From a virus (lineage: Duplodnaviria; Heunggongvirae; Uroviricota; Caudoviricetes), in IMG/VR virus record IMGVR_UViG_2571042438_000008: a DNA stretch of 47,797 nt; one strand, 5' to 3'. The notes under the pieces are model-generated. The model ran no database searches and was not told the DNA's origin. It saw only the letters and a list, made by a program, of their open reading frames with translations. A program made the position numbers and the translations under genes. Shown here piece after piece: positions 8,248 through 47,797 of the stretch. The stretch's first letter is position 1, and every line of letters begins with the position of its first letter.

Positions 8248-8335
8248 ACCATTGCTGAAATGTCTTTTTCAAGACCTTGCCAATAAGCTAAACAAAAATG
8301 TTTAATGTGCAGCCTAAAAAAGCACCAGTCACTAT

Positions 8336-8448
8336 TATTTATATAATTATAGATTTATATAAAAAGTGCTTTACGGGTGGGAAAAAATTTCCTATGGTTA
8401 TACCCGAAACCGAGCGATACCCGCCCTGGTTAAACCGGAGATAACCCG
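8336..8448 (+). promoter_or_regulatory. Promoter-leader cassette, copy 1 (AT-rich dyad motif, -35 TTTACG 8370-8375, 17-nt spacer, -10 TATGGT 8393-8398, conserved leader, GGAGA RBS)
   Basis: ~88 bp near-identical to 17311-17398 and 24189-24276 (two substitutions seen in this copy); sigma70-like hexamers with 17-bp spacing. Confidence 0.55.
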
Positions 8449-8829
8449 ATGAGCATGATTAAAATCCGCAAAAACGCTTTCCTTAAAATTCAAACTATCC
8501 TGGCTGGTTCTGTCGGCGTGATTTGCCGTTCTTCTTCAAGCCGCATCGATGACGGCTACGATGATGAGTATCGTGTGTCCTCGTGCGATGAGGCTTTAAC
8601 CTGGCTGAAGGAGAATCAGGAACGTGCCCAGGTATATCTGGAAACAGAGAACGGCAATCAGATGCTGCGTATTAGCGGTCGTTATGGATTTGAAACTACA
8701 TTCATGGCCTATTTTAATCAGGCTTACTTTGACAAGGAGCTGGCCTGGTACACTGACCGCATGAGCAAAAGCGAGCCAGCCCCGATTACACCGCCGAACA
8801 ATAAACCATTTTTATTCCTCGTTAAGTAA
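8449..8829 (+). CDS. Hypothetical protein (126 aa), first gene after cassette copy 1
   Basis: ORF with GGAGA RBS 9 nt upstream; no recognisable domain. Confidence 0.5.
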   Translation: MSMIKIRKNAFLKIQTILAGSVGVICRSSSSRIDDGYDDEYRVSSCDEALTWLKENQERAQVYLETENGNQMLRISGRYGFETTFMAYFNQAYFDKELAWYTDRMSKSEPAPITPPNNKPFLFLVK

Positions 8830-8892
8830 ACACAATGCGCAAAGTGTCATTTTGACACTTTGCGAGTGTTAATATTGTTCGAGGAGGATGCT

Positions 8893-9166
8893 ATGACGGG
8901 TTATGAATTGAAATTATGGCGTCGTGGGATGAATTGGACGCAGGAGCGAGCCGCTGAAGAGTTTGGGATATCGTTGGCTACATATAAGCGATATGAGAAG
9001 GGTGAGCCGCCGAGGGGGCATTGAGATGGCCATTCGCGTTCTGTCGTTTGACGATATGGTTAAGGATCTTTCACACCTTGATAAAGATGCGATTCTGTTA
9101 AGGCTGCAAACCCTTGTATGGGAAAAGGTTAAAGTGTCGTCAGAATTGGAACAAGGGATCAAATGA
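8893..9166 (+). pseudogene. XRE-type HTH protein gene interrupted by a +1 frame change at a G5 run (9014-9018)
   Basis: GAGGAGG RBS then ATG 8893; HTH-like segment LWRRGMNWTQERAAEEFGISLATYKRYEKGE; frame 1 stops at 9022-9024 and the sequence continues in the +1 frame to 9166; removing one G would give a single 90-aa ORF. Confidence 0.4.
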
Positions 9167-9216
9167 TCCTTTACGGATCGTTTTATGGTGGTGTAATGTA
9201 AGCGCCAGAAAGACAA

Positions 9217-9239
9217 AAACCGCCTTGCCGGGCGGTTTT
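9217..9239. terminator. Hairpin terminator (possibly bidirectional) after the 8449-9166 operon
   Basis: CCGCC-TTGCCG-GGCGG stem-loop flanked by an A5 run upstream and T4 downstream. Confidence 0.5.
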
Positions 9240-9953
9240 CAGTCTGAAATTTAAATCTTGCTTGGTAGGCTGGATTTAAAAAGACACCTCTTGATTGGGG
9301 CGGCTTTCTTGCGTCTAAAGATAATCAAATCTTTTTGCGCCTGCAACCCCTTTTTTACTGGTGCCCATTTCAGACTCACGCTCGCGTCGTTGTCTTTGCC
9401 ACTTCGTTGGGTTCGGTGTTTTTGGGCGAAGTGGCGCGCGGGTATGCGTACAAGGGGAAAGTGTGCTGACGCAAGCCAGGAACAGCGATCTAAACTAAGT
9501 CGAGTCTGAGAAAGGCAGGAGTGCGACAACTCGCCTGTGCTCTATGAGCAGAAGAAGGTATATCAGACGACCAATGGCATGATTGTGGGCCACAGGGCGC
9601 ACACGGCGGCGAAGCATTGGAAACGATGTGGAGCTATCTGGTGGCATGAGTTCCGGTACTCGATCTCGAGCTTTTTTTGATGCTTTTGAGAAGGGGCCGG
9701 AACTCCGGTAAAGGGCACCCTGTATGGGGGGAGGGGGGGTTGTGTCTGAAGGGTGGCTATCGGTTATGGTGGAATTATGATGCGTAGAAAAGCGAGTTTG
9801 CTGCAAGCTATTGGGTCCATTATTTCTTTGTTTCCGGCAGTTGATCATTTTCGTCATATGGCGACACGTTCGAGTATGGGCTTGGCGCGTGACGCTGACG
9901 CTATTCGAAAGGATTTTCAGAAAGTCTCTGGTGTTGATAAGAGAGAAAAGAGT

Positions 9954-9971
9954 AAGGGGCCGTAGCCCCTT
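9954..9971 (-). terminator. Hairpin after the antirepressor gene 3' end
   Basis: AAGGGGC-CGTA-GCCCCTT stem-loop; the minus-strand transcript continues into a U-rich tract. Confidence 0.4.
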
Positions 9972-9975
9972 GTAG

Positions 9976-11175
9976 TTATGGTCTGCTTTTCTGTGCCAGC
10001 TTATCAGCACATGTTTTTATCAGATCCTGTAGTGTCCTGGCTGGCAGGTTTGCATCCAGTACGCTGAGTATGCTGTTGTGATCTGCTTGGTCGACTACTT
10101 TGCCTGTCGGTGGTAGTAGCTTGAGCTGAGGATTCAGGTTTTCGTCAAAGCTGATAAGTGCTCTGGCGTTTCTGAGCAGATCAAGAAGTAAGGCTGATAT
10201 CACATTTTCCTGAGTCATTGCTGGCAGACTTAGCGCCGCTTTGGTTTTCCCTGTTGCCTTGTCAAACTCCTTGATTAGTTCCTTCCTGTAGTTCGGTTCC
10301 GTTAATAGCCGATTATGCTCTGTTGCCGCGCGGATAATCGTTTTTTCCTGGTATAGTCGTTTAGCCAGATCACGCTCGTACTGTGTTTTTAACACGCTGC
10401 TGATAGCGTTAAAGGCTTCAATGTAGGCCAGCTTGATATCTTTCACGCCTGGACCGTCGATGCTCTCCATGAGCAAGGTAAATCCGTCTTTTGTCATGCG
10501 ATAGATTGTTATTTCGCGGTCGCTTCCTTCCAGCGGTCGTTGCTCTTTAAAGAAGTGACGCGCCGCAGCCGTGCGAGGAATGCGTAGCGCATCGATGGCC
10601 ATAACGATGGAATTGTTTGTGGTGCTGAATGCCTGGGCAACATCGGCTGAGGTTGTGAGTGGCTCGTTGTTGCACACTTTAATGTAAAACATCGGTTTGG
10701 CGTTGAGCGTATCGACAACCTCACGAGCATTGCTTGGCGAGACGGTTACGGTCGCGGCCGTTTGCGCGTTCCGGCTGAAATAGCAGTCTTCCAGCCGTTC
10801 GAACACATCCCACGCTTGGTTAGTTTCAAGCATTTTGGCGTGACGTGCAGCCCCGCGTTCTGTCCAGAGAATGAGGGAGCGGGCTTTCGGGGAAATTTGT
10901 AACCCTCTTAAAGATGGTTGCACATTTTGTGAGTTACTTAAAGTAACCCGCAAATTTTGTGAGTGACTTAAAGTCACTCGCAAAGTTTTTAACTCATCGC
11001 CAGCCACTTTGAAAAAATGCTTTCCTTCAATAAAGCGGTTTGCGTTACGTGAGTAATTTTTTTTGATGTTATCAACGTCTGTGCCGTATAGCTTTGCCAG
11101 TAGTTCAGTAGTGATAACGGGGATCTGGTTATGCAGGATAGGCTGTAGGGTGTTAACGGTCGGAAGCGTTTTCAT
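9976..11175 (-). CDS. Antirepressor-like protein (ORF6N/KilA-N-like N-terminus plus Rha-like domain)
   Basis: N-terminal VITTELLAKLYGTDVDNIKKNYSRNANRFIEGKHFFKV and a central Rha-like segment, as recalled; 399 aa. Confidence 0.65.
   Translation of the reverse strand: MKTLPTVNTLQPILHNQIPVITTELLAKLYGTDVDNIKKNYSRNANRFIEGKHFFKVAGDELKTLRVTLSHSQNLRVTLSNSQNVQPSLRGLQISPKARSLILWTERGAARHAKMLETNQAWDVFERLEDCYFSRNAQTAATVTVSPSNAREVVDTLNAKPMFYIKVCNNEPLTTSADVAQAFSTTNNSIVMAIDALRIPRTAAARHFFKEQRPLEGSDREITIYRMTKDGFTLLMESIDGPGVKDIKLAYIEAFNAISSVLKTQYERDLAKRLYQEKTIIRAATEHNRLLTEPNYRKELIKEFDKATGKTKAALSLPAMTQENVISALLLDLLRNARALISFDENLNPQLKLLPPTGKVVDQADHNSILSVLDANLPARTLQDLIKTCADKLAQKSRP
10924..10983. repeat. Two tandem 30-bp repeats inside the antirepressor gene, each carrying a palindrome (GAGTTAC-TTAAA-GTAACCC; GAGTGAC-TTAAA-GTCACTC)
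   Basis: Units 10924-10953 and 10954-10983 differ at 3 positions, two of them compensatory for the inverted repeat; a degenerate third unit lies at ~10893-10923. Confidence 0.7.
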
Positions 11176-11399: not shown

Positions 11400-11658
11400 T
11401 CGAGGCTAATCAAATGGTGGTGAGCCGTACAGGGTTAGCCTTACCGGACACAATGACGAACCGGCGCGGATTTCTCCGCCCCTGTACGACCCACCATAAT
11501 TTGGGCGTAACAGTGCTCTACGCATAAAAAAACCGCTAACGCGGTATGCGCCATCGTGTTATTCAGGAGGCTAATCCCGGCCGTAGATTTTGCTACGGCT
11601 CGGAAAGTGTCCACCAATGGCGCATTTATGTCAATACGGCGGGATTTTAACAGAGACA

Positions 11659-11673: not shown

Positions 11674-12116
11674 TTTATTGGTAGGCAGAAACAAAAAAAC
11701 CGCCCTATTGAGGACGGTTCTTTCGTGCTGATCGGATTCGCGGTCCTTTCAGCATTACGTTGTTGTATAAACAACCACGCAAGCACAAGCAGCAAGTTAA
11801 TTTTACCCAAAAGGTAATAATAGTCCACTATTATGCTTCAAAAAATTGTGGTTCTTGTTGTGCCTGCAAACTCACAGATTGTGGGTAGGTTACTGATTTT
11901 GTGAAAATAAACGAGTTTTTTCGTTTAATTTCTTTCCTATTACTAATCTTAAAATAATCGTAAAATACCTGTGGACCTTCCCGCCGATTCGCACCCGGGC
12001 ACCGACTTTAGGGGAGGATTCTCCGTTGCCGTACATGCAAGCACAAGCAGCCGTGCTTGCTCTCGCGTTGTTTTCGTCGGTGGGGATGCCGTGAAACGGC
12101 CTGTAAGGGCCATACA

Positions 12117-12239
12117 ATGAAAAAATACTGTATGTGTATTTTTATCGTTGTTACTGGGGCTTTGTTTACGCCACATGGGGAGGGTTGGAAGATTACTGAT
12201 AACGCTCTGAATGTGACGATAAACATTAGCAGCAAGTAG
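12117..12239 (+). CDS. Small hydrophobic peptide (40 aa; MKKYCMCIFIVVTGALF...)
   Basis: ATG 12117 in an otherwise ORF-poor, hairpin-rich region; followed 7 nt later by a strong intrinsic terminator. Confidence 0.3.
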   Translation: MKKYCMCIFIVVTGALFTPHGEGWKITDNALNVTINISSK

Positions 12240-12245
12240 CGATTA

Positions 12246-12268
12246 GGCCCCTTCGGGGGCCTTTTTTT
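12246..12268 (+). terminator. Rho-independent terminator
   Basis: GGCCCC-TTCG-GGGGCC stem-loop followed by T7. Confidence 0.8.
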
Positions 12269-13586: not shown

Positions 13587-13961
13587 TCAGAGGTCAGCTA
13601 TCGTTGATATCAGTTGATTTGCTAGCTGTCGCTGTTTACGTGAGAGGGTTAGAGCAGCTTCTGAGCGGTCGCTAAGAGGGGGGGTTTCATCAAGAATCAT
13701 GAGGCATACAGAAATAATAGCCCTGTTATATGCCATCAATGGCTGGCACAGCTTCGATACCGCTGGCACATCGTATTGTAAGGCCGTTTTGAGGCAGACT
13801 TTTTGTTCTGATGCCAGATGAAGGATAGATTCTATCCAGTCGATATCTTTCTCATTATCAATGATTTGGCATAACATACACTCAATCGCTATGTTCAACG
13901 CTTGGATTTCGATTCCAGCAGTGATCAGAGTTTCGTTTTTATTGGCTGTATGTAATTCCAT
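13587..13961 (-). CDS. Hypothetical protein encoded immediately downstream of the repressor gene
   Basis: 124-aa ORF; operator dyad 13997-14011 lies between it and cI; hairpin 13564-13581 after its stop. Confidence 0.45.
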   Translation of the reverse strand: MELHTANKNETLITAGIEIQALNIAIECMLCQIIDNEKDIDWIESILHLASEQKVCLKTALQYDVPAVSKLCQPLMAYNRAIISVCLMILDETPPLSDRSEAALTLSRKQRQLANQLISTIADL

Positions 13962-16857: not shown

Positions 16858-17235
16858 GTGAGACGCGATCTGGATAGCTTGTTTGAGCTATGGGCGCTGT
16901 GGGTGCGCAATGGCTGCAACGCCCGTAGCGGTTTCGCGTCGATGTTAGAAATGATGATGGTTACGCGCTGCCAGTTTACCGGAGGGGGCGGCGCACCAAA
17001 TGACTCACTGGAAACCAGTATAGAGGGAGCGGTGACGGCCCTCACGGTAGTTGATGAGACTGCGGCGCTGGTTGTCCGAATTGAATACGGGGCGTGGGAG
17101 ATTCGGGGCCTCGACATAAATGCACCGCATATTGATAAAGCCCACGCCCTTTCTCTTAGCCTCAGACAGTATCGCCGGAAGCTGGCAAAAGCCAGGGCGT
17201 ATGTTGTCGACTATTTGAAAAAGCGAAGAGAGTAA
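16858..17235 (+). CDS. Possible late-gene regulator (Q-like antiterminator candidate, weak)
   Basis: Last gene of the early operon, immediately upstream of cassette copy 2; N-terminal LFELWALWVRNG loosely resembles small Q proteins but lacks the Cys cluster. Confidence 0.3.
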   Translation: MRRDLDSLFELWALWVRNGCNARSGFASMLEMMMVTRCQFTGGGGAPNDSLETSIEGAVTALTVVDETAALVVRIEYGAWEIRGLDINAPHIDKAHALSLSLRQYRRKLAKARAYVVDYLKKRRE

Positions 17236-17286
17236 AAGTGTCATTTTGAGCTGTTTTGATGGTGTGTAGACATCGGGAACATCGAA

Positions 17287-17404
17287 AATCTATAAATATA
17301 TAATTATAGATTTATATAAAAAGTGCTTTACAGGTGGGAAAAAATTTCCTATGGTTATACCCGAAACCGAGCGATACCCGCCCTGGTTAAACCGGAGAAA
17401 TCTG
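17287..17404 (+). promoter_or_regulatory. Promoter-leader cassette, copy 2 (dyad AAATCTATA-N12-TATAGATTT, -35 TTTACA 17327-17332, -10 TATGGT 17350-17355, conserved leader, GGAGA RBS)
   Basis: Near-identical to copies 1 and 3 over ~88 bp; 17-bp spacer. Confidence 0.55.
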
Positions 17405-18472
17405 ATGAATAAACAAGTAATTATTTCTGACTGGATCAACAACCCTAACAGCCTGTTAAGCACTGATACTGGCTACCTATTACGCCATGTTAATGGTCGT
17501 ATGGTCAAAAGCGATGAGCACGAAACCTTTTTCTTTGTTGAAGACGATGGGCGTATCTATGAGGATGGTTACTCTTATGAAGCCCAAACTGGTTGTATCC
17601 CTGCGGAGCTGGTGGACGTAACAGAAGATCTGCGCAAAGCATGGCTTGAACAGCAGCAGCGCGGAGATGATTACGTAAACACCTATCAGGAACGCCAGAA
17701 CGCGCGTCTTGCCCGATATATTGCTCGTGCAGAAAAAGCCAGAAAAGAAGGTGCGGTAGCGCATAAGCGAGCGCATGACCTGTTGGATGTGATCCCGTTA
17801 GGCCAGCCGATTTTAGTTGACCATTATAGCGCGAAAGGCCATCGCCGCCGTTTGTCTAAAGCTGATGCGTTATTCAGAAAAGCGTTTGTTGAATGCGAAA
17901 GTAAAGCATCACACTACGAGAGCAAAGCCGCAGGTGTTGGTCGTAATGGAATTTCGTCTGATGATCCTGATGCGCTATTTAAGTTGCTTCGTAAGCTGCA
18001 AGGCTGCATGAAGTCACACGTCAAAATGAAGGCCGCAAATAAGGCCATTCGCAAATACAAAAAAGACCAAATACAGCAGCTTTCTGCATTAATCGATCTC
18101 AGGTTTACAGAAAGCGAAGCCAAAGAGTTACTGGCCGGAGATTTCTGTGGGCACATCGGATTCCCTTCATACGCACTGAGCAACAATAACGCCGAAATCA
18201 AACGACTACAGAGCCGTATTAAGGAGCTTGAATCGGTCAAGTCTGTAACAGGAGCACAGCGCGAAGAATACGACGGCTTTTCTATGGAGATAGATCCAGA
18301 GGATAACCGCATCCTGTTTTATTTCCCTGGCAAACCAGAGGCAAACATTCGTTCGCTGCTTAAATCACGCGCCTTTAAGTGGAGTCCAACCCGTAATGCA
18401 TGGGTTCGCAAGATTACTCCAAACGCCCTGGCTGATGCCCGATATCTAAAAGAATCGCTATTGAAAGCCTGA
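17405..18472 (+). CDS. Large hypothetical protein (355 aa), first gene after cassette copy 2
   Basis: Start set at ATG 17405 (GGAGA RBS); the upstream ATG 17351 lies in the conserved leader. Confidence 0.6.
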   Translation: MNKQVIISDWINNPNSLLSTDTGYLLRHVNGRMVKSDEHETFFFVEDDGRIYEDGYSYEAQTGCIPAELVDVTEDLRKAWLEQQQRGDDYVNTYQERQNARLARYIARAEKARKEGAVAHKRAHDLLDVIPLGQPILVDHYSAKGHRRRLSKADALFRKAFVECESKASHYESKAAGVGRNGISSDDPDALFKLLRKLQGCMKSHVKMKAANKAIRKYKKDQIQQLSALIDLRFTESEAKELLAGDFCGHIGFPSYALSNNNAEIKRLQSRIKELESVKSVTGAQREEYDGFSMEIDPEDNRILFYFPGKPEANIRSLLKSRAFKWSPTRNAWVRKITPNALADARYLKESLLKA

Positions 18473-22906: not shown

Positions 22907-23030
22907 TACCGCCTGTGATTGGGTAAAGCCCATCTACCTGACTGATCACGATATCGATGTTATGGACCGCCAGACAAAGAAAGATATTCTGGCTCATAAC
23001 AGGGCATGGGAAATCAACTGCCCCAAGTAA
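22821..23030 (+). CDS. o-spanin (Rz1-like lipoprotein), partly nested in the i-spanin gene in the +1 frame
   Basis: Lipobox LIASC after a hydrophobic N-terminus; starts inside 22628..22906. Confidence 0.6.
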   Translation: MYIRVLTIWLMTMLIASCGSRGSVPVVVDTACDWVKPIYLTDHDIDVMDRQTKKDILAHNRAWEINCPK

Positions 23031-23199
23031 TATATATTTCTATAATTATATAAATATATAGTTACAACATTCTATGCGCTTTTCTCATGGGCGCACGCAT
23101 CAACCATGTTTGTCTGATATGCCGCCGCGCCCAAAAATCCTGAATTTATTGGCTGGGATTTTCGTGCGCGGCGCCACACCAGACAAACAGATCAAATAT

Positions 23200-23275
23200 G
23201 GCCCCTTAGCTCAGTGGTTAGAGCAGGCGACTCATAATCGCACGGTCATCGGTTCAAATCCGGTAGGGGCCACCA
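23200..23275 (+). tRNA. tRNA with CAU anticodon (Met or Ile2/lysidine type), 76 nt including CCA
   Basis: Cloverleaf elements readable: acceptor GGCCCCT/AGGGGCC, D-arm AGCTCAGTGGTTAGAGC, anticodon loop CTCATAA, T-arm GGTTCAAATCC, 3' CCA; close to E. coli tRNA-Ile2 as recalled. Confidence 0.85.
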
Positions 23276-23482
23276 ATTCACTCTCACACATAAAGATAAG
23301 CGCGGTGGAGTTACTTCCTTCGTGCTCATCTTTATGCGTGCCTGGTGCGCATTTCGGGCGAACGTGGGGCTAAGTTACAGGCAGGGCCTGTTATCCGCAA
23401 AGGGGTAAAAGCTGGAGCGGCACGGAACTGTAGCCGTGTTACCAAAACAGCGTTGTCGGGCGATATCCGGCACACAACAGGC

Positions 23483-23583: not shown

Positions 23584-24171
23584 ATGGAGGCAATTGCATT
23601 GTTTAATCTGATTTATGCAGATCCCCCCTGGGAATACAAAGATAAGTGTAAGGATGGGAATCGTGGAGCTGGTTTTAAGTATCCAACGATGAAAGCTGAG
23701 GATATTGCTCGTATTCCTGTCTGGCAGCTTGCTAATCCTGAATCGTGTTTGTTGGCCATGTGGTGGGTTCCGACTCAGCCAGAAGAAGCGTTGCTGGTGG
23801 TGAAAGCATGGGGATTCAGGCTTATGACCATGAAGGGCTTCACATGGAACAAATGTGGTAGCCGACAACCAGATAAGCTGGTGATGGGGATGGGGCATAT
23901 GACTCGTGCAAACAGTGAAGATTGCTTGTTTGCGGTAAAAGGCAAATTGCCGACCCGCCTTGATGCGGGGATCATTCAGTCGTTTACATCGCCTCGTCTG
24001 GAGCATTCTCGGAAGCCTGATGTGGTTCGTGACAAGCTGGTAAGGCTGTTAGGTGATGTTCCTCGTATTGAGCTGTTTTCTCGCGGTGATTTACCTGATG
24101 GTTGGCATGGCTGGGGCAACCAGTGCAATGGAGGTATCCAGTTGCATGATGCTCTCTGGCAAGTGGCATAA
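23584..24171 (+). CDS. MT-A70-family N6-adenine methyltransferase
   Basis: DPPW motif (LIYADPPWEY) and family-typical N-terminal layout. Confidence 0.8.
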   Translation: MEAIALFNLIYADPPWEYKDKCKDGNRGAGFKYPTMKAEDIARIPVWQLANPESCLLAMWWVPTQPEEALLVVKAWGFRLMTMKGFTWNKCGSRQPDKLVMGMGHMTRANSEDCLFAVKGKLPTRLDAGIIQSFTSPRLEHSRKPDVVRDKLVRLLGDVPRIELFSRGDLPDGWHGWGNQCNGGIQLHDALWQVA

Positions 24172-24282
24172 AATTATATAATTATATATTTATATAAAAA
24201 GTGCTTTACAGGTGGGAAAAAATTTCCTATGGTTATACCCGAAACCGAGCGATACCCGCCCTGGTTAAACCGGAGAAATCTG
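24171..24282 (+). promoter_or_regulatory. Promoter-leader cassette, copy 3 (-35 TTTACA 24205-24210, -10 TATGGT 24228-24233, conserved leader, GGAGA RBS)
   Basis: Near-identical to copies 1 and 2. Confidence 0.55.
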
Positions 24283-24552
24283 ATGAAAGTACAAGACCGT
24301 GAAGTAGTAAAAAACCTCCTGCAATACCTGACCTCAAAAAACCTGACGGGCAGCGTTGAGTTCCGTGAAGCGTTAAAACATTTCAACGTCACTACGGTTT
24401 ATCGTTGGGAAAACAAACATTCTGAAAGACCGTATGTGGTGGATGTTTTTGCGCCTGATATTGAGTGCGGTTTTGAGCGTCATTCGTTCAAGGAGAAACA
24501 TTCTGCTGATTTTTTTTGTGAGGTTGTATGTGCGGCAGGAGATGATGAGTGA
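24283..24552 (+). CDS. Hypothetical protein (90 aa), first gene after cassette copy 3
   Basis: Start set at ATG 24283; the upstream ATG 24229 lies in the conserved leader. Confidence 0.5.
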   Translation: MKVQDREVVKNLLQYLTSKNLTGSVEFREALKHFNVTTVYRWENKHSERPYVVDVFAPDIECGFERHSFKEKHSADFFCEVVCAAGDDE

Positions 24553-40741: not shown

Positions 40742-43534
40742 ATGGCCAGCAATAAGAACTTTAAGCTGGCTTTTGAAATTGGCGGCAAAGTTGCCGCCTC
40801 TCTCCCCAAAAGTTTTACTACAGCTAATCAGGCTGTTGCTAAATTAAATGCCGAGCTTGCTGGATTAACGAAAGAACATGGGGAAATTCAAAAGCTACAA
40901 TCTGTAAAAGTAAAGGTTGGACAGACTGCCCTCGAATATCATAAAGCTGCCGCTCGCGTTGAAGAGTTACAGAAGCAAATAAAAAACACGGCCAATCCAA
41001 CCAGAGCGATGCTTCGTGACTTTGAGAAGGCAAAAACACATTCATCGAATTTACGAGCATCACTACGTTCTCAGCGTGAAGAACTGGCCGCTTTAAAGTC
41101 TGCCTATCAGGGAGCTGATACATCTGCCAGAGCTTTGGCCTCAAGAGAGAAAGAGCTTAAAGCCAGCATTGATCGTAATCGTGAGGCTCAGGCCCGTAGC
41201 GTTGAGCAGGTTAACCGCTACAGAACGGCTTTGGCTTTAGCCAGAGCAAATGTTCAGCAAGTGAAAAAACAGCAGGAGGAACTTAACCGGGCATTAGAAA
41301 AACAACGTATTGATAAAATTAACAGCTATAAAAATGCGTTGGCTGAAGCACGGAAAAATGTTCTTGCAGTAAAACGTGCTCAGGAGGAGTTAAACCGCGC
41401 GTTGGAAAGGCAGCGTGAATTGAAGCGAGAGCATCTTGGTGAGGCAAAGAGTCAACTTGTAAGGTCAGGATTACAAACTGGTGCTGTAGCGGCTGGTGCA
41501 TTTGCTGCTGCTAACAATGCAGCAAATTTCAATCGTGAAAACAAAATGATTGGTCTTACGGCAGATATGAAGCCGGAAGAAGTTCAGGCGATGGGGCAGG
41601 CGATGCTTGTTACCGGAACGGCTACCAACCAGTTTGCATCTGATATTCAGGCCGCTCAGGGTTTTCTCGTCGCTGCTGGGCAGGATTATAAAGAGGCTCA
41701 GGCGAATCTACTAACTATTGGGCGAACAGCTACAGCTACTGGCTCTGATATCCTCGATGTCTCGAAAGCATCATTTACATTAAGTGACTCATTGAAGATT
41801 GATCCATCTCAAATGAAGTCTGCAATGGGGATTCTGGTTCAGGCAGGGAAAGAGGGGAACTTTGAATTTAAAGATATGGCCAAAAATCTTCCTGTGCTTG
41901 GTGCTCAGTTCCAGGCATTAAAAATGGGAGGTAAAGAAGCAGCCGCGACGATGGGTGCAGCTTTGCAGATAGCTCGCAAGGGGGCTGCAACTTCGGATGA
42001 GGCTGCTAATAATATGAACAACTTTTTGGCAAAAATACTTTCCCCTGAAACACTAAAAAAAGCAAAGAAAAATTTCGGTGTAGATTTATATAAAATTGTT
42101 ACAACAGCGCAGAAAAAAGGGAAGAATCCATTCGAAGCTGCAATGCATTCTGTCATGAAAATGACTAAGAACGGAGATCAGAAGTTACTTGGTGAACTAT
42201 TTGGCGATATGCAGGTTCAGAACTTTGTTCGTCCGATGATTCAAAACTGGAAGGAATACCAGAGAATCAAAGCAACATCTCTTGGAGCTGGAAGTGCTGT
42301 TATTGACCGCGATTTTGCCAACATAACGAAAGATAATGCGGAGCGATTGAAACAATTACGTATTCAGGCTAGCAATGCATCATTAAGTTTTGGTCAGGCC
42401 TTGCAACCTGCTTTGAATGCCGCGCTTAGTGTTTTGGTTCCGCTGATTACAAAAATTAGTGAATTTGTAGCTAACAACCCCAATTTTGTGTCTCAGATAG
42501 TGATGGCGGCAGGTGCGTTTCTAACCATGAAAAGTGTGGTTATAGCGTGTAGGGTAGCTATGCTGGCTTTATCTGTAGCGACAAAGCTAACACCCTTCGG
42601 GTGGATTCAGATGGCTATATCTGCGCTGGTTGCCGCAGGAATATTGCTCTATCAGAATTGGGATAAGATCAGAGATTATGCTGTCAGAGTTTGGCCTTCT
42701 GTTAAGGAATATACAGTTAAATCATTTGAGGCTATAAAAAACTTTATCTTAAACTTTGACCTCAATGGATGGATTATATCTATGTTTGGTAAAGCATGGG
42801 ATTATCTTTCCAACATAAACTGGAGTTCGGCAGGTGTAAGAATTTACAGTACATTAATTAGTGCTTTTAAATGGATGTCTCCGCTTCCGTTCTTAATTAA
42901 AGCATTTAAAATTACAACAAATTACCTTTCTGGCATTAACTGGAGCGAAACAGGAAAGAAAATCATAGATACACTGGTATCTGTTTTTATGCGTTTTTCA
43001 CCAGTTGGACTCTTTATAAGAGCATTCCAATCTGTAACGACTTATTTATCTGGAATAAACTGGAGTGAGTCAGGCGCAAAAATAATTGAGACGTTAATCA
43101 CTGGGATAAAATCAAAAGCAAATGCTTTAATTAATGAAGTGAAAGGCGTTTTTTCTTCTGTACGTGAGTATTTACCGTTCTCTGACGCGAAAAAAGGTCC
43201 ATTCTCACAGCTAACAAAGTCAGGTGGTGCAATAATGACTACTCTGGCATCAGGTGTTAGCAGGAATAACAGCTTACAGAATGCAATAGCAAGCAAGTTC
43301 GGGCAATCAAATTTATCACCTCACGGGATATCTGCCGCCGGGACTTCTGGACCTCGCCAGAACGTTAACGCTGTGACTGGTGGAATAACCTATTCACCTG
43401 TAATCAATCTTCCGGCTGGTTCACCAAAGGAAACTGAGGCGGCAGCTAAAAGAGCATTAGATGCGGGATATTCTGATTTTGAGAAGAAATTGAGTGCTCA
43501 TATGTTCCAACAACGGAGATTAAGTTTTGGATGA
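40742..43534 (+). CDS. Tail tape measure protein
   Basis: 930 aa; long coiled-coil-like N-terminal half, hydrophobic segments, repeated W-containing motifs (GINWSE). Confidence 0.85.
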   Translation: MASNKNFKLAFEIGGKVAASLPKSFTTANQAVAKLNAELAGLTKEHGEIQKLQSVKVKVGQTALEYHKAAARVEELQKQIKNTANPTRAMLRDFEKAKTHSSNLRASLRSQREELAALKSAYQGADTSARALASREKELKASIDRNREAQARSVEQVNRYRTALALARANVQQVKKQQEELNRALEKQRIDKINSYKNALAEARKNVLAVKRAQEELNRALERQRELKREHLGEAKSQLVRSGLQTGAVAAGAFAAANNAANFNRENKMIGLTADMKPEEVQAMGQAMLVTGTATNQFASDIQAAQGFLVAAGQDYKEAQANLLTIGRTATATGSDILDVSKASFTLSDSLKIDPSQMKSAMGILVQAGKEGNFEFKDMAKNLPVLGAQFQALKMGGKEAAATMGAALQIARKGAATSDEAANNMNNFLAKILSPETLKKAKKNFGVDLYKIVTTAQKKGKNPFEAAMHSVMKMTKNGDQKLLGELFGDMQVQNFVRPMIQNWKEYQRIKATSLGAGSAVIDRDFANITKDNAERLKQLRIQASNASLSFGQALQPALNAALSVLVPLITKISEFVANNPNFVSQIVMAAGAFLTMKSVVIACRVAMLALSVATKLTPFGWIQMAISALVAAGILLYQNWDKIRDYAVRVWPSVKEYTVKSFEAIKNFILNFDLNGWIISMFGKAWDYLSNINWSSAGVRIYSTLISAFKWMSPLPFLIKAFKITTNYLSGINWSETGKKIIDTLVSVFMRFSPVGLFIRAFQSVTTYLSGINWSESGAKIIETLITGIKSKANALINEVKGVFSSVREYLPFSDAKKGPFSQLTKSGGAIMTTLASGVSRNNSLQNAIASKFGQSNLSPHGISAAGTSGPRQNVNAVTGGITYSPVINLPAGSPKETEAAAKRALDAGYSDFEKKLSAHMFQQRRLSFG

Positions 43535-47261: not shown

Positions 47262-47797
47262 TATCTTTAATGTTAGCTTGTTGGATGTTTTACCTCCTAA
47301 CTTAGCTAGCGATCCCAACGTGATAGCTATGTCGAAAGCTATTGATGATGAACTACAAGCAATTAACAATTTAATATATAAGACAGAAATATATAGCGTT
47401 GTTGATAACCTGGACTCAGTTGTTCTCGATCATTTAGCTTGGCAATGGAATGCTGATACATGGAGGGATAGTTGGCCTGTATTGTTAAAGCGTTCTGTTT
47501 TTAAATCAATAATACGAACAAAGCGAATAAAGGGTACAAGGGCAGCGGTTGAAGATGTAGTAAATAGCTTGGGTGGAGAGGTAAACATAACAGAATGGTT
47601 TGAAACATCACCACCTGGCGAACCATATACAGCCTCAATTGTTGCTTCGATTAACTCTTTTGATGGTGCTGTTCCTTCGAAAGAGATGTTGGAGGATACG
47701 TTAAGAAGTATCAAGAGTGCAAAGTCGGCAAGAACACTATTTACATTTTCGCAAGCAACCAATGTTTCAGGTGGTGTTGGTATTGTCGGTGCTTTCC
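47254..47797 (+). CDS. Baseplate gpI-like protein, 5' part (open at window end; continues at 1..289 through the terminal duplication)
   Basis: ATG 47254 overlapping the gpJ-like stop; ORF not terminated within the window; frame matches 23..289. Confidence 0.65.
   Translation, partial: MADIFNVSLLDVLPPNLASDPNVIAMSKAIDDELQAINNLIYKTEIYSVVDNLDSVVLDHLAWQWNADTWRDSWPVLLKRSVFKSIIRTKRIKGTRAAVEDVVNSLGGEVNITEWFETSPPGEPYTASIVASINSFDGAVPSKEMLEDTLRSIKSAKSARTLFTFSQATNVSGGVGIVGAF
47547..47797. repeat. Terminal direct repeat: 47547..47797 is identical to 1..251
   Basis: Read directly: both begin ggttgaagatgtagtaaatagc and end gtcggtgctttcc. Confidence 0.9.

Follow-up and report, generated by a model that had tools for sequence, protein, structure and literature searches.

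A length-invariant G6-A-G7 tract in an enterobacterial phage-plasmid lies in a conserved non-coding block that probably encodes a large structured RNA

The 47,797-nucleotide window analysed here, IMG/VR virus record IMGVR_UViG_2571042438_000008 (Caudoviricetes), has identical ends: positions 1-251 recur as 47547-47797, a 251-bp overlap that leaves a replicon of ~47,546 bp. The window therefore represents a complete circular element of ~47.5 kb. Its gene content (an IncFII-type RepA, ParA, a HigB/HigA-like pair, a complete set of myovirus morphogenesis genes, and an immunity region in the style of P1) identifies it as a phage-plasmid. RepA is its sole recognisable replication gene. Near-identical to the window are 62 PLSDB plasmids from E. 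coli, E. albertii, E. fergusonii, Salmonella, and Klebsiella, as well as three Yersinia myophages (vB_YpM_39, vB_YpM_41, and vB_YpM_44). The element is present in 72 of 5426 complete E. coli genomes (~1.3%), and 72 of the 73 places where it occurs are plasmids. The carriers include ATCC 25922, in whose plasmid CP009073 the block spans 17112-17632. Here we describe the block that separates a small helix-turn-helix (HTH) gene from the convergent antirepressor gene ant (Table 1), which carries a G6-A-G7 tract and probably encodes a large structured RNA on the + strand.

The first-pass annotation of this DNA had described 9240-9975 as a GC-rich non-coding block with a G6-A-G7 tract at 9726-9739, upstream of a possible small open reading frame (ORF). 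The tract, GGGGGGAGGGGGGG on the + strand, is present as claimed. It is the only match in the window even when two mismatches are allowed (0.12 in shuffles), and G6 runs are otherwise rare, with three loci in 47.8 kb (six matches vs. 12.4 in shuffles). GC content is indeed raised, at 0.52-0.54 over 9300-9900 against 0.39-0.47 upstream and 0.46-0.47 just downstream, but the contrast is modest because the ant gene itself reaches 0.51-0.54. The non-coding description holds for 9240-9776, where the public records checked contain no annotated coding sequence or RNA and PGAP places nothing in 72 genomes. It does not hold for 9777-9965: the ATG at 9777 opens a 62-aa ORF annotated by PGAP, probably an optional gene, and the right third of the interval therefore lies outside the conserved non-coding block.

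Within the ~540 bp around the tract, no ORF is conserved across the six sequence types described below. No frame of at least 12 codons keeps both its start and its phase, each being broken, shifted, or deprived of its start; indels interrupt the frames of the block, and the sole stable 12-codon ORF lacks an ATG in two types. The only frame running through the tract (MGGGGVV...) is not conserved downstream. Coding hypotheses were rejected on this basis, no reading frame being kept across the six types.

Copies of the block from plasmids, IMG/VR, metagenomes, and assemblies comprise 23-24 distinct variants, which fall into six sequence types with 87-96% mutual identity. RNAalifold predictions from sets of 6, 24, and 23 variants contain ~122 pairs, with 99.4-99.5% of sequence-by-pair cells canonical. 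In the 24-variant set, six pairs changed on both sides, a count that none of 500 column shuffles reached and that compares with 0-2 for slid partners. With two extra types the number of compensatory pairs is nine, or eight if counted against the commonest pair; eight was reached by one of 500 shuffles, and slid partners gave 0-3. Of the 122 pairs, 22 are G-U, a pairing that exists on the + strand only. Variable pairs are canonical in 98% of cases on the + strand vs. 66% on the - strand, and one-sided changes nearly all switch G-U with G-C or A-U. RNAalifold returned -142.6 with 122 pairs (nine compensatory) for the + strand, against -93.0 with 100 pairs (three compensatory) for the - strand.

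These figures bear on the possibility that the block has no RNA function at all and is instead conserved as DNA, such as a protein-binding or recombination site, or is a recently shared segment in which the paired changes arose by chance. With 87-100% identity the family is both young and narrow, a segment spread recently by mosaic exchange could seem better conserved than the older genes beside it, and related sequences can beat column shuffles without any structure. Against this, compensatory changes recur independently in the hairpins at 9398-9435, 9614-9629, and 9250-9281, nearly every one-sided change is compatible with G-U pairing on a single strand, and the slid-partner controls, in which relatedness is kept, give 0-3 vs. 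the observed 8-9. We regard an absence of RNA function as quite improbable.

The predicted RNA is G-rich and C-poor (A88 C90 G143 U101 of 422), and its parts differ in how they vary (Table 1). The strongest covariation lies in the hairpin at 9398-9435, where five pairs, and the adjoining outer pair 9387-9436, show compensatory changes across types. In this hairpin, as in the one at 9614-9629, the stem comes in three or four sequence versions, while the fold of the 9250-9281 hairpin is kept with three different inner-stem sequences. Variation in the 3′ domain consists entirely of A-U/G-U or U-G/C-G switches that keep the pairs. At the left edge of the block, the terminator scan flags 9214-9241 on the - strand only, the + strand U-run being UUU in five of six types.

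Rfam 15 contains no family that reaches its gathering threshold in 9240-9760, searches with lax filters on 171-641 nt included. The best lax scores (Phe_leader, 24.8 bits against 55; WT1-AS_5, 21.7 against 80; RNAI, 18.1 against 47) fall on flanking hairpins or the G run and were rejected as chance-level. Weak generic hairpin and terminator matches on the - strand (RNAI at 18 bits against 47, ohsC, AgrB) coincide with 9214-9241.

Table 1 Features of the locus and of its surroundings in the window.
Feature	Position	Strand	Description
126-aa gene	8449-8829	+	In the upstream 126-aa/HTH operon
Small Xre-type HTH gene	8893-9166	+	90 aa; directly before the studied block
Conserved module	9118-9753	+	Last ~16 HTH codons, chain of 5′ hairpins, and RNA core
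GC-rich hairpin	9214-9241		Good intrinsic terminator on - (UUUUUGUCUUUCU tail); leaky or weak on + (3-4 U)
Three 5′ hairpins upstream of core	9250-9281, 9283-9307, 9310-9340	+	Predicted by per-variant folds and RNAalifold
Structured RNA core	9337-9753	+	~417 nt, 122 predicted pairs (RNAalifold)
GCAACCCCUUUUUU	9343-9356	+	Invariant C/U-rich 5′ strand of predicted closing helix
Hairpin GCCACUUCG...CGAAGUGGC	9398-9435	+	Strongest covariation
Invariant stretch CGCGGGUAUGCGUACAAGGGGAAAGUGUGCUGACGCAAGCCAGGAACAGC	9438-9487	+	~50 nt, identical in every variant
GCAUUG-GAAA-CGAUGU hairpin	9614-9629	+	GNRA tetraloop; four stem sequences keep pairing; three pairs double-changed
3′ domain	9648-9705	+	Predicted long-range helix GAGUUCCGG/CCGGAACUC around inner stem and U-rich loop
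G6-A-G7 tract	9726-9739	+	Predicted 3′ strand of closing helix (9731-9743 paired)
62-aa ORF WP_004105254.1	9777-9965	+	Probable gene in optional, variable slot; in 41/62 PLSDB plasmids
Hairpin GGGGCCGUAGCCCC	9954-9971		Between + strand unit and convergent ant; terminator scan
ant, antirepressor	9976-11175	-	ORF6N and Rha domains; convergent with + strand unit
icd-like ORF	After ant in local gene order	-	P1-style immunity region
C4 antisense RNA	11413-11501	-	Rfam, 70.8 bits, above gathering score
isrK-like RNA	11526-11599	-	Rfam, 68 bits, above gathering score
ryfA-like RNA	11971-12267	+	Rfam, 141.8 bits, above gathering score; family includes timP type I toxin mRNA
tRNA, anticodon CAT	23200-23275	+	Rfam, above gathering score; ARAGORN: Met; PGAP in sister record: tRNA-Ile

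Two metagenome copies of the RNA carry internal deletions (L039 245-676 and L046 2393-2824). One lacks ~50 nt, comprising the 9398-9435 hairpin and part of the next, and the other lacks 22 nt (~9499-9520); these copies are either defective or assembly artefacts. A 16-nt motif, TGGTGC(G/C)CATTTC(A/G)G, occurs three times in the window, once inside the RNA (2304-2319, 9359-9374, and 23343-23358; 88-94% identical), and a similar motif, TTGGTGCCCATTT, is found in an unrelated Lelliottia locus (L029). It may reflect chance or a binding site.

The G tract is predicted to close the fold. In the ensemble computed for the window sequence, 9731-9743 (GAGGGGGGGUUGU) pairs with 9343-9355 (GCAACCCCUUUUU) with a probability above 0.9, and both the minimum free energy (MFE) structure and RNAalifold agree. 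The tract and GCAACCCCUUUUU are each invariant in all six sequence types, so that no covariation test is possible for this helix; their joint invariance fits mutual dependence of the two strands. The tract contains GGAGG, which resembles a Shine-Dalgarno sequence, and its CU-rich partner resembles an anti-Shine-Dalgarno sequence. A G-quadruplex (G4) would be an energetically competitive alternative to the helix. The tract alone offers at most three G3 runs with loops of 1-7 nt, a fourth needing a loop of 10-11 nt; when G4 terms are included, ViennaRNA gives -170.5 kcal/mol for a two-tier G4 vs. -163.9 kcal/mol for the helix fold.

The first-pass annotation had also raised the idea of a phase-variable promoter spacer, to be recognised by length heterogeneity of the tract across isolates. 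Adjacent runs of six and seven G are slippage-prone in principle, and slippage could alter promoter spacing or the frame or expression of the ORF at 9777. The window has a comparable G7 run at 13678-13684. The tract is, nevertheless, essentially invariant. All six diverged types carry G6AG7, as do 21 of 23 full-length metagenome and virome variants; the other two read G6AG8 by a T-to-G substitution that leaves the overall length unchanged, and the deleted copy in L039 reads G6AG5TG, again by substitution. Among 60 inspected complete E. coli genomes, 55 gave matches of exactly the query length, and tract length was normal in 57. Two of the five exceptions have an indel elsewhere and an intact tract, and three are off by one G: one assembly of ATCC 25922 (G5AG7 plus a T deletion), one of strain 405 (G6AG8), and one of strain 103 (G6AG6). 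Six other assemblies of ATCC 25922 are normal, as are two of the three of strain 405, so that two of the three deviations are contradicted within their own strain, which is what homopolymer errors of assembly look like. In addition, promoter scans located no -35/-10 sigma-70 hexamer pair spanning or flanking the tract, and the ORF at 9777 is absent from about a third of the family. Phase variation is therefore unsupported, and we consider it highly improbable.

The limits of the conserved unit can be read from its relatives. On the left, the unit is missing from family member L058, whose HTH gene ends at a point equivalent to ~9118. On the right, in about one plasmid in three the match to the query goes no further than 9752-9753; the conserved module ends 8-14 nt past the tract, and at least five unrelated sequences begin after ...GGGGGGGUUGUGUCU (module end, ...GTGTCT). 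The left limit in L058 and the right-hand breakpoint together delimit a module of ~9118-9753. Between E. coli and Salmonella copies, this module is 86-91% identical, vs. 53-83% for the flanking protein genes. Since L058 does without the RNA, it is dispensable for the family, and its dispensability together with its movement as a mosaic module indicates an accessory function.

What follows the module varies. The 62-aa ORF is elsewhere replaced by a protein of ~211-218 aa with an N-terminal membrane helix, or by nothing. In L004 and in the Salmonella member L003, the terminator hairpin GGGGCCGUAGCCCC, shared with ant, stands directly after the module with no + strand gene between, which brings it within ~12 nt of the G tract in variants without the ORF. 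The larger slot protein, which many relatives have and which is encoded at L005 4603-5238, L051 1480-2136, L055 4355-4999, and L058 1467-2108, corresponds to phrog_23465 and has no match in Pfam or NCBIfam. Its alleles are 36-45% identical, far more diverged than the adjacent RNA, which would be in keeping with diversifying selection on an exclusion or defence gene.

This arrangement invites a reading of the folded RNA as a cis-acting leader, that is, a 5′ untranslated region controlling the variable accessory gene just downstream, possibly with the CU and G tracts switching between mutual pairing and the ribosome-binding region. Most members do have a + strand ORF 35-50 nt after the tract with no terminator between, the mosaic breakpoint falls exactly between the RNA and the ORF, and the GGAGG and its anti-Shine-Dalgarno-like partner are the elements that such a switch would use. 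However, the RNA is equally conserved in L003 and L004, where nothing follows on the + strand, and L058 has the membrane-protein gene but not the RNA. The downstream alleles are 36-45% identical and have their own ribosome-binding sites, whereas the RNA is 88-100% identical, and no known riboswitch or leader family in Rfam matches it. Because the RNA persists without a following gene and the membrane-protein gene persists without the RNA, an autonomous RNA is favoured, and the leader reading is considered unlikely.

Beyond this phage-plasmid family the RNA was not encountered: when phages, plasmids, and E. coli genomes were searched by blastn (word size 11), the RNA matches were limited to the family, and two further IMG/VR motif scans added no loci to those already found. 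Of 19 metagenome matches, four were rejected as chance 19-mers. At six loci encoding HTH proteins 48-66% identical to the one here, from Serratia, Erwinia, Lelliottia, Scandinavium, and Pseudescherichia, nhmmer found no match to the module, and the DNA after the HTH gene is gene-dense. In one relative (L053, 3856-4878), an IS110-family transposase lies right after the 126-aa gene, at the place expected for the HTH gene and the RNA.

Promoter scans returned no candidate at 9/12, and a looser scan gave candidates at 7/12 only. On the + strand, a weak candidate (TTTACG-16-TGTAAT) lies at 9170-9197. The only - strand candidate (TTGCAG-17-TATCTT, 9346-9318; 7/12) would give an antisense RNA of ~100 nt over the 5′ hairpins, ending at the 9241-9214 terminator. 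Because the hairpin at 9214-9241 is followed by only 3-4 U on the + strand, read-through from the upstream operon, which starts with one of three near-identical ~115-nt promoter/operator/leader copies, is plausible. Judging from this anatomy, transcription would enter from the 126-aa/HTH operon through the poor + strand terminator, or would begin at a weak promoter where the HTH gene ends, and would stop at the hairpin shared with the convergent ant gene.

Two further classes of system were considered. In the first, modelled on ColE1 RNA II or the mitochondrial CSB II region, the G6AG7 of the + strand transcript would form a persistent RNA-DNA hybrid or hybrid G4, halting transcription and priming DNA synthesis and so providing a second, lytic origin beside the IncFII RepA replicon, possibly gated by the short antisense RNA. 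The G run would switch from intramolecular pairing to an R-loop or hybrid G-quadruplex, and such an origin would have evolved independently. Consistent with this, the transcript would be long, folded, and untranslated, and the G run close to its 3′ end has nearly the sequence of human mitochondrial CSB II (G6AG8). The strong - strand terminator at the left edge and the candidate antisense promoter (an arrangement like RNA I/RNA II) are likewise consistent, as are RepA being the only recognisable replication gene and the competitiveness of the G4 in G4-aware folding. Yet blastn at word size 11 against 72,556 plasmids revealed no similarity to ColE1-type origins, and the RNAI model scores 18.1 bits against a cut-off of 47. 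Promoter candidates match weakly, folding predicts an intramolecular partner for the tract, a terminator or ORF follows the tract within ~12-50 nt, and L058 lacks the module altogether. We consider an RNA-primed origin improbable.

The second class is a hok/sok-type sense/antisense module for addiction or control, with an mRNA-like RNA of ~400-550 nt locked by 5′-3′ fold-back and a small antisense RNA over its 5′ part. The predicted 5′-3′ closing helix and the - strand hairpin and terminator over the 5′ region would suit such a design, and other maintenance modules lie nearby (the HigB/HigA-like pair, ParA, and the ryfA/timP-like RNA). But the block has no conserved small ORF, no Hok-like or other toxin family was found, and the antisense promoter reaches only 7/12, which leaves this reading very doubtful. 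The ColE1/CSB II-like and hok-like ideas thus each fit part of the anatomy, and each fails its defining test, homology for the former and a toxin ORF for the latter.

Taken together, we place at about 0.65 the probability that the block encodes a structured RNA on the + strand, with the G tract as a fixed part of its structure. The suggestion in the first-pass annotation that the block might encode such an RNA is backed by + strand covariation, by conservation, and by the lack of a conserved ORF. Several observations weigh on the other side. There are only six types, at 87-96% identity, and the covariation sits in two or three hairpins; the long-range helices, including that of the G tract, are predicted from energy models and sequence invariance. 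Single-sequence MFE z-scores are modest, -2.2 for the + strand and -3.1 for the - strand, and give the + strand no advantage. RNAalifold shifts the register of the tract's 5′ partner with other alignments, and three single variants have substitutions in the tract or the adjacent U that would break a predicted pair. The promoter matches are weak on either strand (7/12), the family is narrow, with no RNA beside the six distant HTH homologues or in L058, and no target or partner was found for the RNA.

Under the structured-RNA reading, the core at ~9337-9753 and three more hairpins from ~9250 would form a large non-coding RNA gene on the + strand. G6AG7 would be the last-made strand of a ~13-bp helix with GCAACCCCUUUUU, synthesised ~390 nt earlier, which would close the whole fold, and the tract would be constant in length because it is a fixed structural element. 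This role for the tract is drawn from thermodynamics and invariance. The closing helix would hide the Shine-Dalgarno-like GGAGG and shield the 3′ end. Where Rho is concerned, a G-rich, C-poor composition suits a long untranslated transcript, and this composition, together with the closing helix, would make the RNA a poor Rho substrate. The variable downstream gene slot would ride on the transcription of the RNA.

As to function within the structured-RNA reading, we tentatively picture a stable, stand-alone, trans-acting, and probably protein-binding accessory RNA of the phage-plasmid. Transcripts of the element show no Watson-Crick complementarity to the RNA beyond 12-14 nt, and duplex energies with C4, isrK, the repeated leader, and the starts of icd and ant are no better than those of shuffles. 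A CsrB-like sponge was rejected, as the seven GGA in 422 nt are roughly what base composition gives by a rough estimate. If real, the RNA would represent an unclassified large structured RNA, a candidate new family, present in ~1.3% of complete E. coli genomes, including the quality-control strain ATCC 25922, as well as in Salmonella and Klebsiella. To our knowledge, large folded RNAs of no known job are rare in enterobacteria; several such large RNAs have proved to be ribozymes, protein scaffolds, or components of defence or anti-defence. Its position at a recombination joint, beside a fast-evolving membrane-protein slot and the antirepressor region, suggests that it may bear on the lysogeny control, maintenance, or exclusion of phage-plasmids.

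The surrounding genes offer some further context. The 126-aa upstream protein has no match in Pfam, NCBIfam, or PADLOC, and its AlphaFold model (pLDDT 77) has no match in the PDB (best E 0.02, TM 0.26). The HTH protein is of generic Xre type with a weak RstR-like match. At 9013-9017, within the HTH gene, relatives have GAGGGTCATT but the window has GAGGGGGCATT. The one additional base, in a G run, splits the 90-aa gene into two ORFs (8860-9024 and 8963-9166); either the isolate carries a pseudogene here or the homopolymer was misread in sequencing. The three ~115-nt promoter/operator and leader copies (8334-8460, 17291-17417, and 24169-24295) precede three different operons and share one short reading frame, MVIPETERYPPWLNRR. 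In two copies this frame runs in phase into the downstream gene; in the 8334 copy a stop closes it. About a dozen AT-rich boxes (TTATATAATTATAGATTTATATAA; 8331, 12752, 13460, 13533, 17288, 18497, 23022-23038, 24166, and 42062) stand in front of operons and resemble the dispersed C1 operators of phage P1; by this analogy they are probably operators of the element's main repressor. Three 42-nt repeats, 64-71% identical, lie at 42802-43083 with an exact spacing of 120 nt.

None of the C4, isrK-like, and ryfA-like RNAs is annotated in the public records viewed. The 31-kb record NZ_CP035831 was considered as a mini-derivative of the element and rejected, as it is an incomplete linear assembly. Full-text literature searches turned up no account of this RNA, the Yersinia phages vB_YpM_39/41/44, or the proteins encoded next to it; a paper on enterotoxigenic E. 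coli (PMC8085198) covers P1-like and SSU5-like plasmids, not this phage-plasmid family.

Among known systems, the closest in kind are the large structured RNAs GOLLD, ROOL, HEARO/omega RNA, and OLE, with which the predicted RNA shares a length of 400-600 nt, a fold of several domains that includes a GNRA tetraloop, a location in temperate phages or plasmids, an absence of coding capacity, and a function that is not obvious from context. Unlike these, it matches none of their covariance models, is limited to phage-plasmids of Enterobacteriaceae, and comes from an element without IscB/TnpB, reverse transcriptase, or another partner gene. The next-door immunity region is of the P1 immI type (C4 antisense RNA, icd, ant) and belongs to the same element; the block sits past the 3′ end of ant, on the other strand, and is neither similar nor significantly complementary to C4 or its targets.

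With ColE1 RNA II/RNA I, the block has in common an untranslated RNA, long and folded, whose G run is close to the 3′ end, and a possible ~100-nt antisense RNA, with a strong terminator, over the 5′ hairpins; it differs in having no homology, an IncFII RepA replicon of its own, and a G run that is predicted to be paired. With hok/sok-type systems, it has in common an RNA of ~400 nt carried on a plasmid, predicted pairing between the 5′ and 3′ ends of that RNA, and the maintenance modules nearby, and differs in lacking a conserved toxin ORF or a Sok-like family match. In human mitochondrial CSB II, an RNA-DNA hybrid G-quadruplex ends transcription and makes the replication primer; the G-run sequence is nearly the same in these otherwise unrelated systems, but here an invariant complementary C/U strand lies within the same RNA. 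Finally, like the phase-variable poly-G contingency loci of Neisseria, Haemophilus, and Campylobacter, the block places a long G homopolymer near a small ORF, whereas its tract is fixed in length across isolates and types and sits outside any promoter spacer or reading frame, inside a conserved RNA that is predicted to fold. The negative result is useful in itself: a 13-G tract that resembles a contingency locus is length-invariant and is best read as one strand of a predicted helix.

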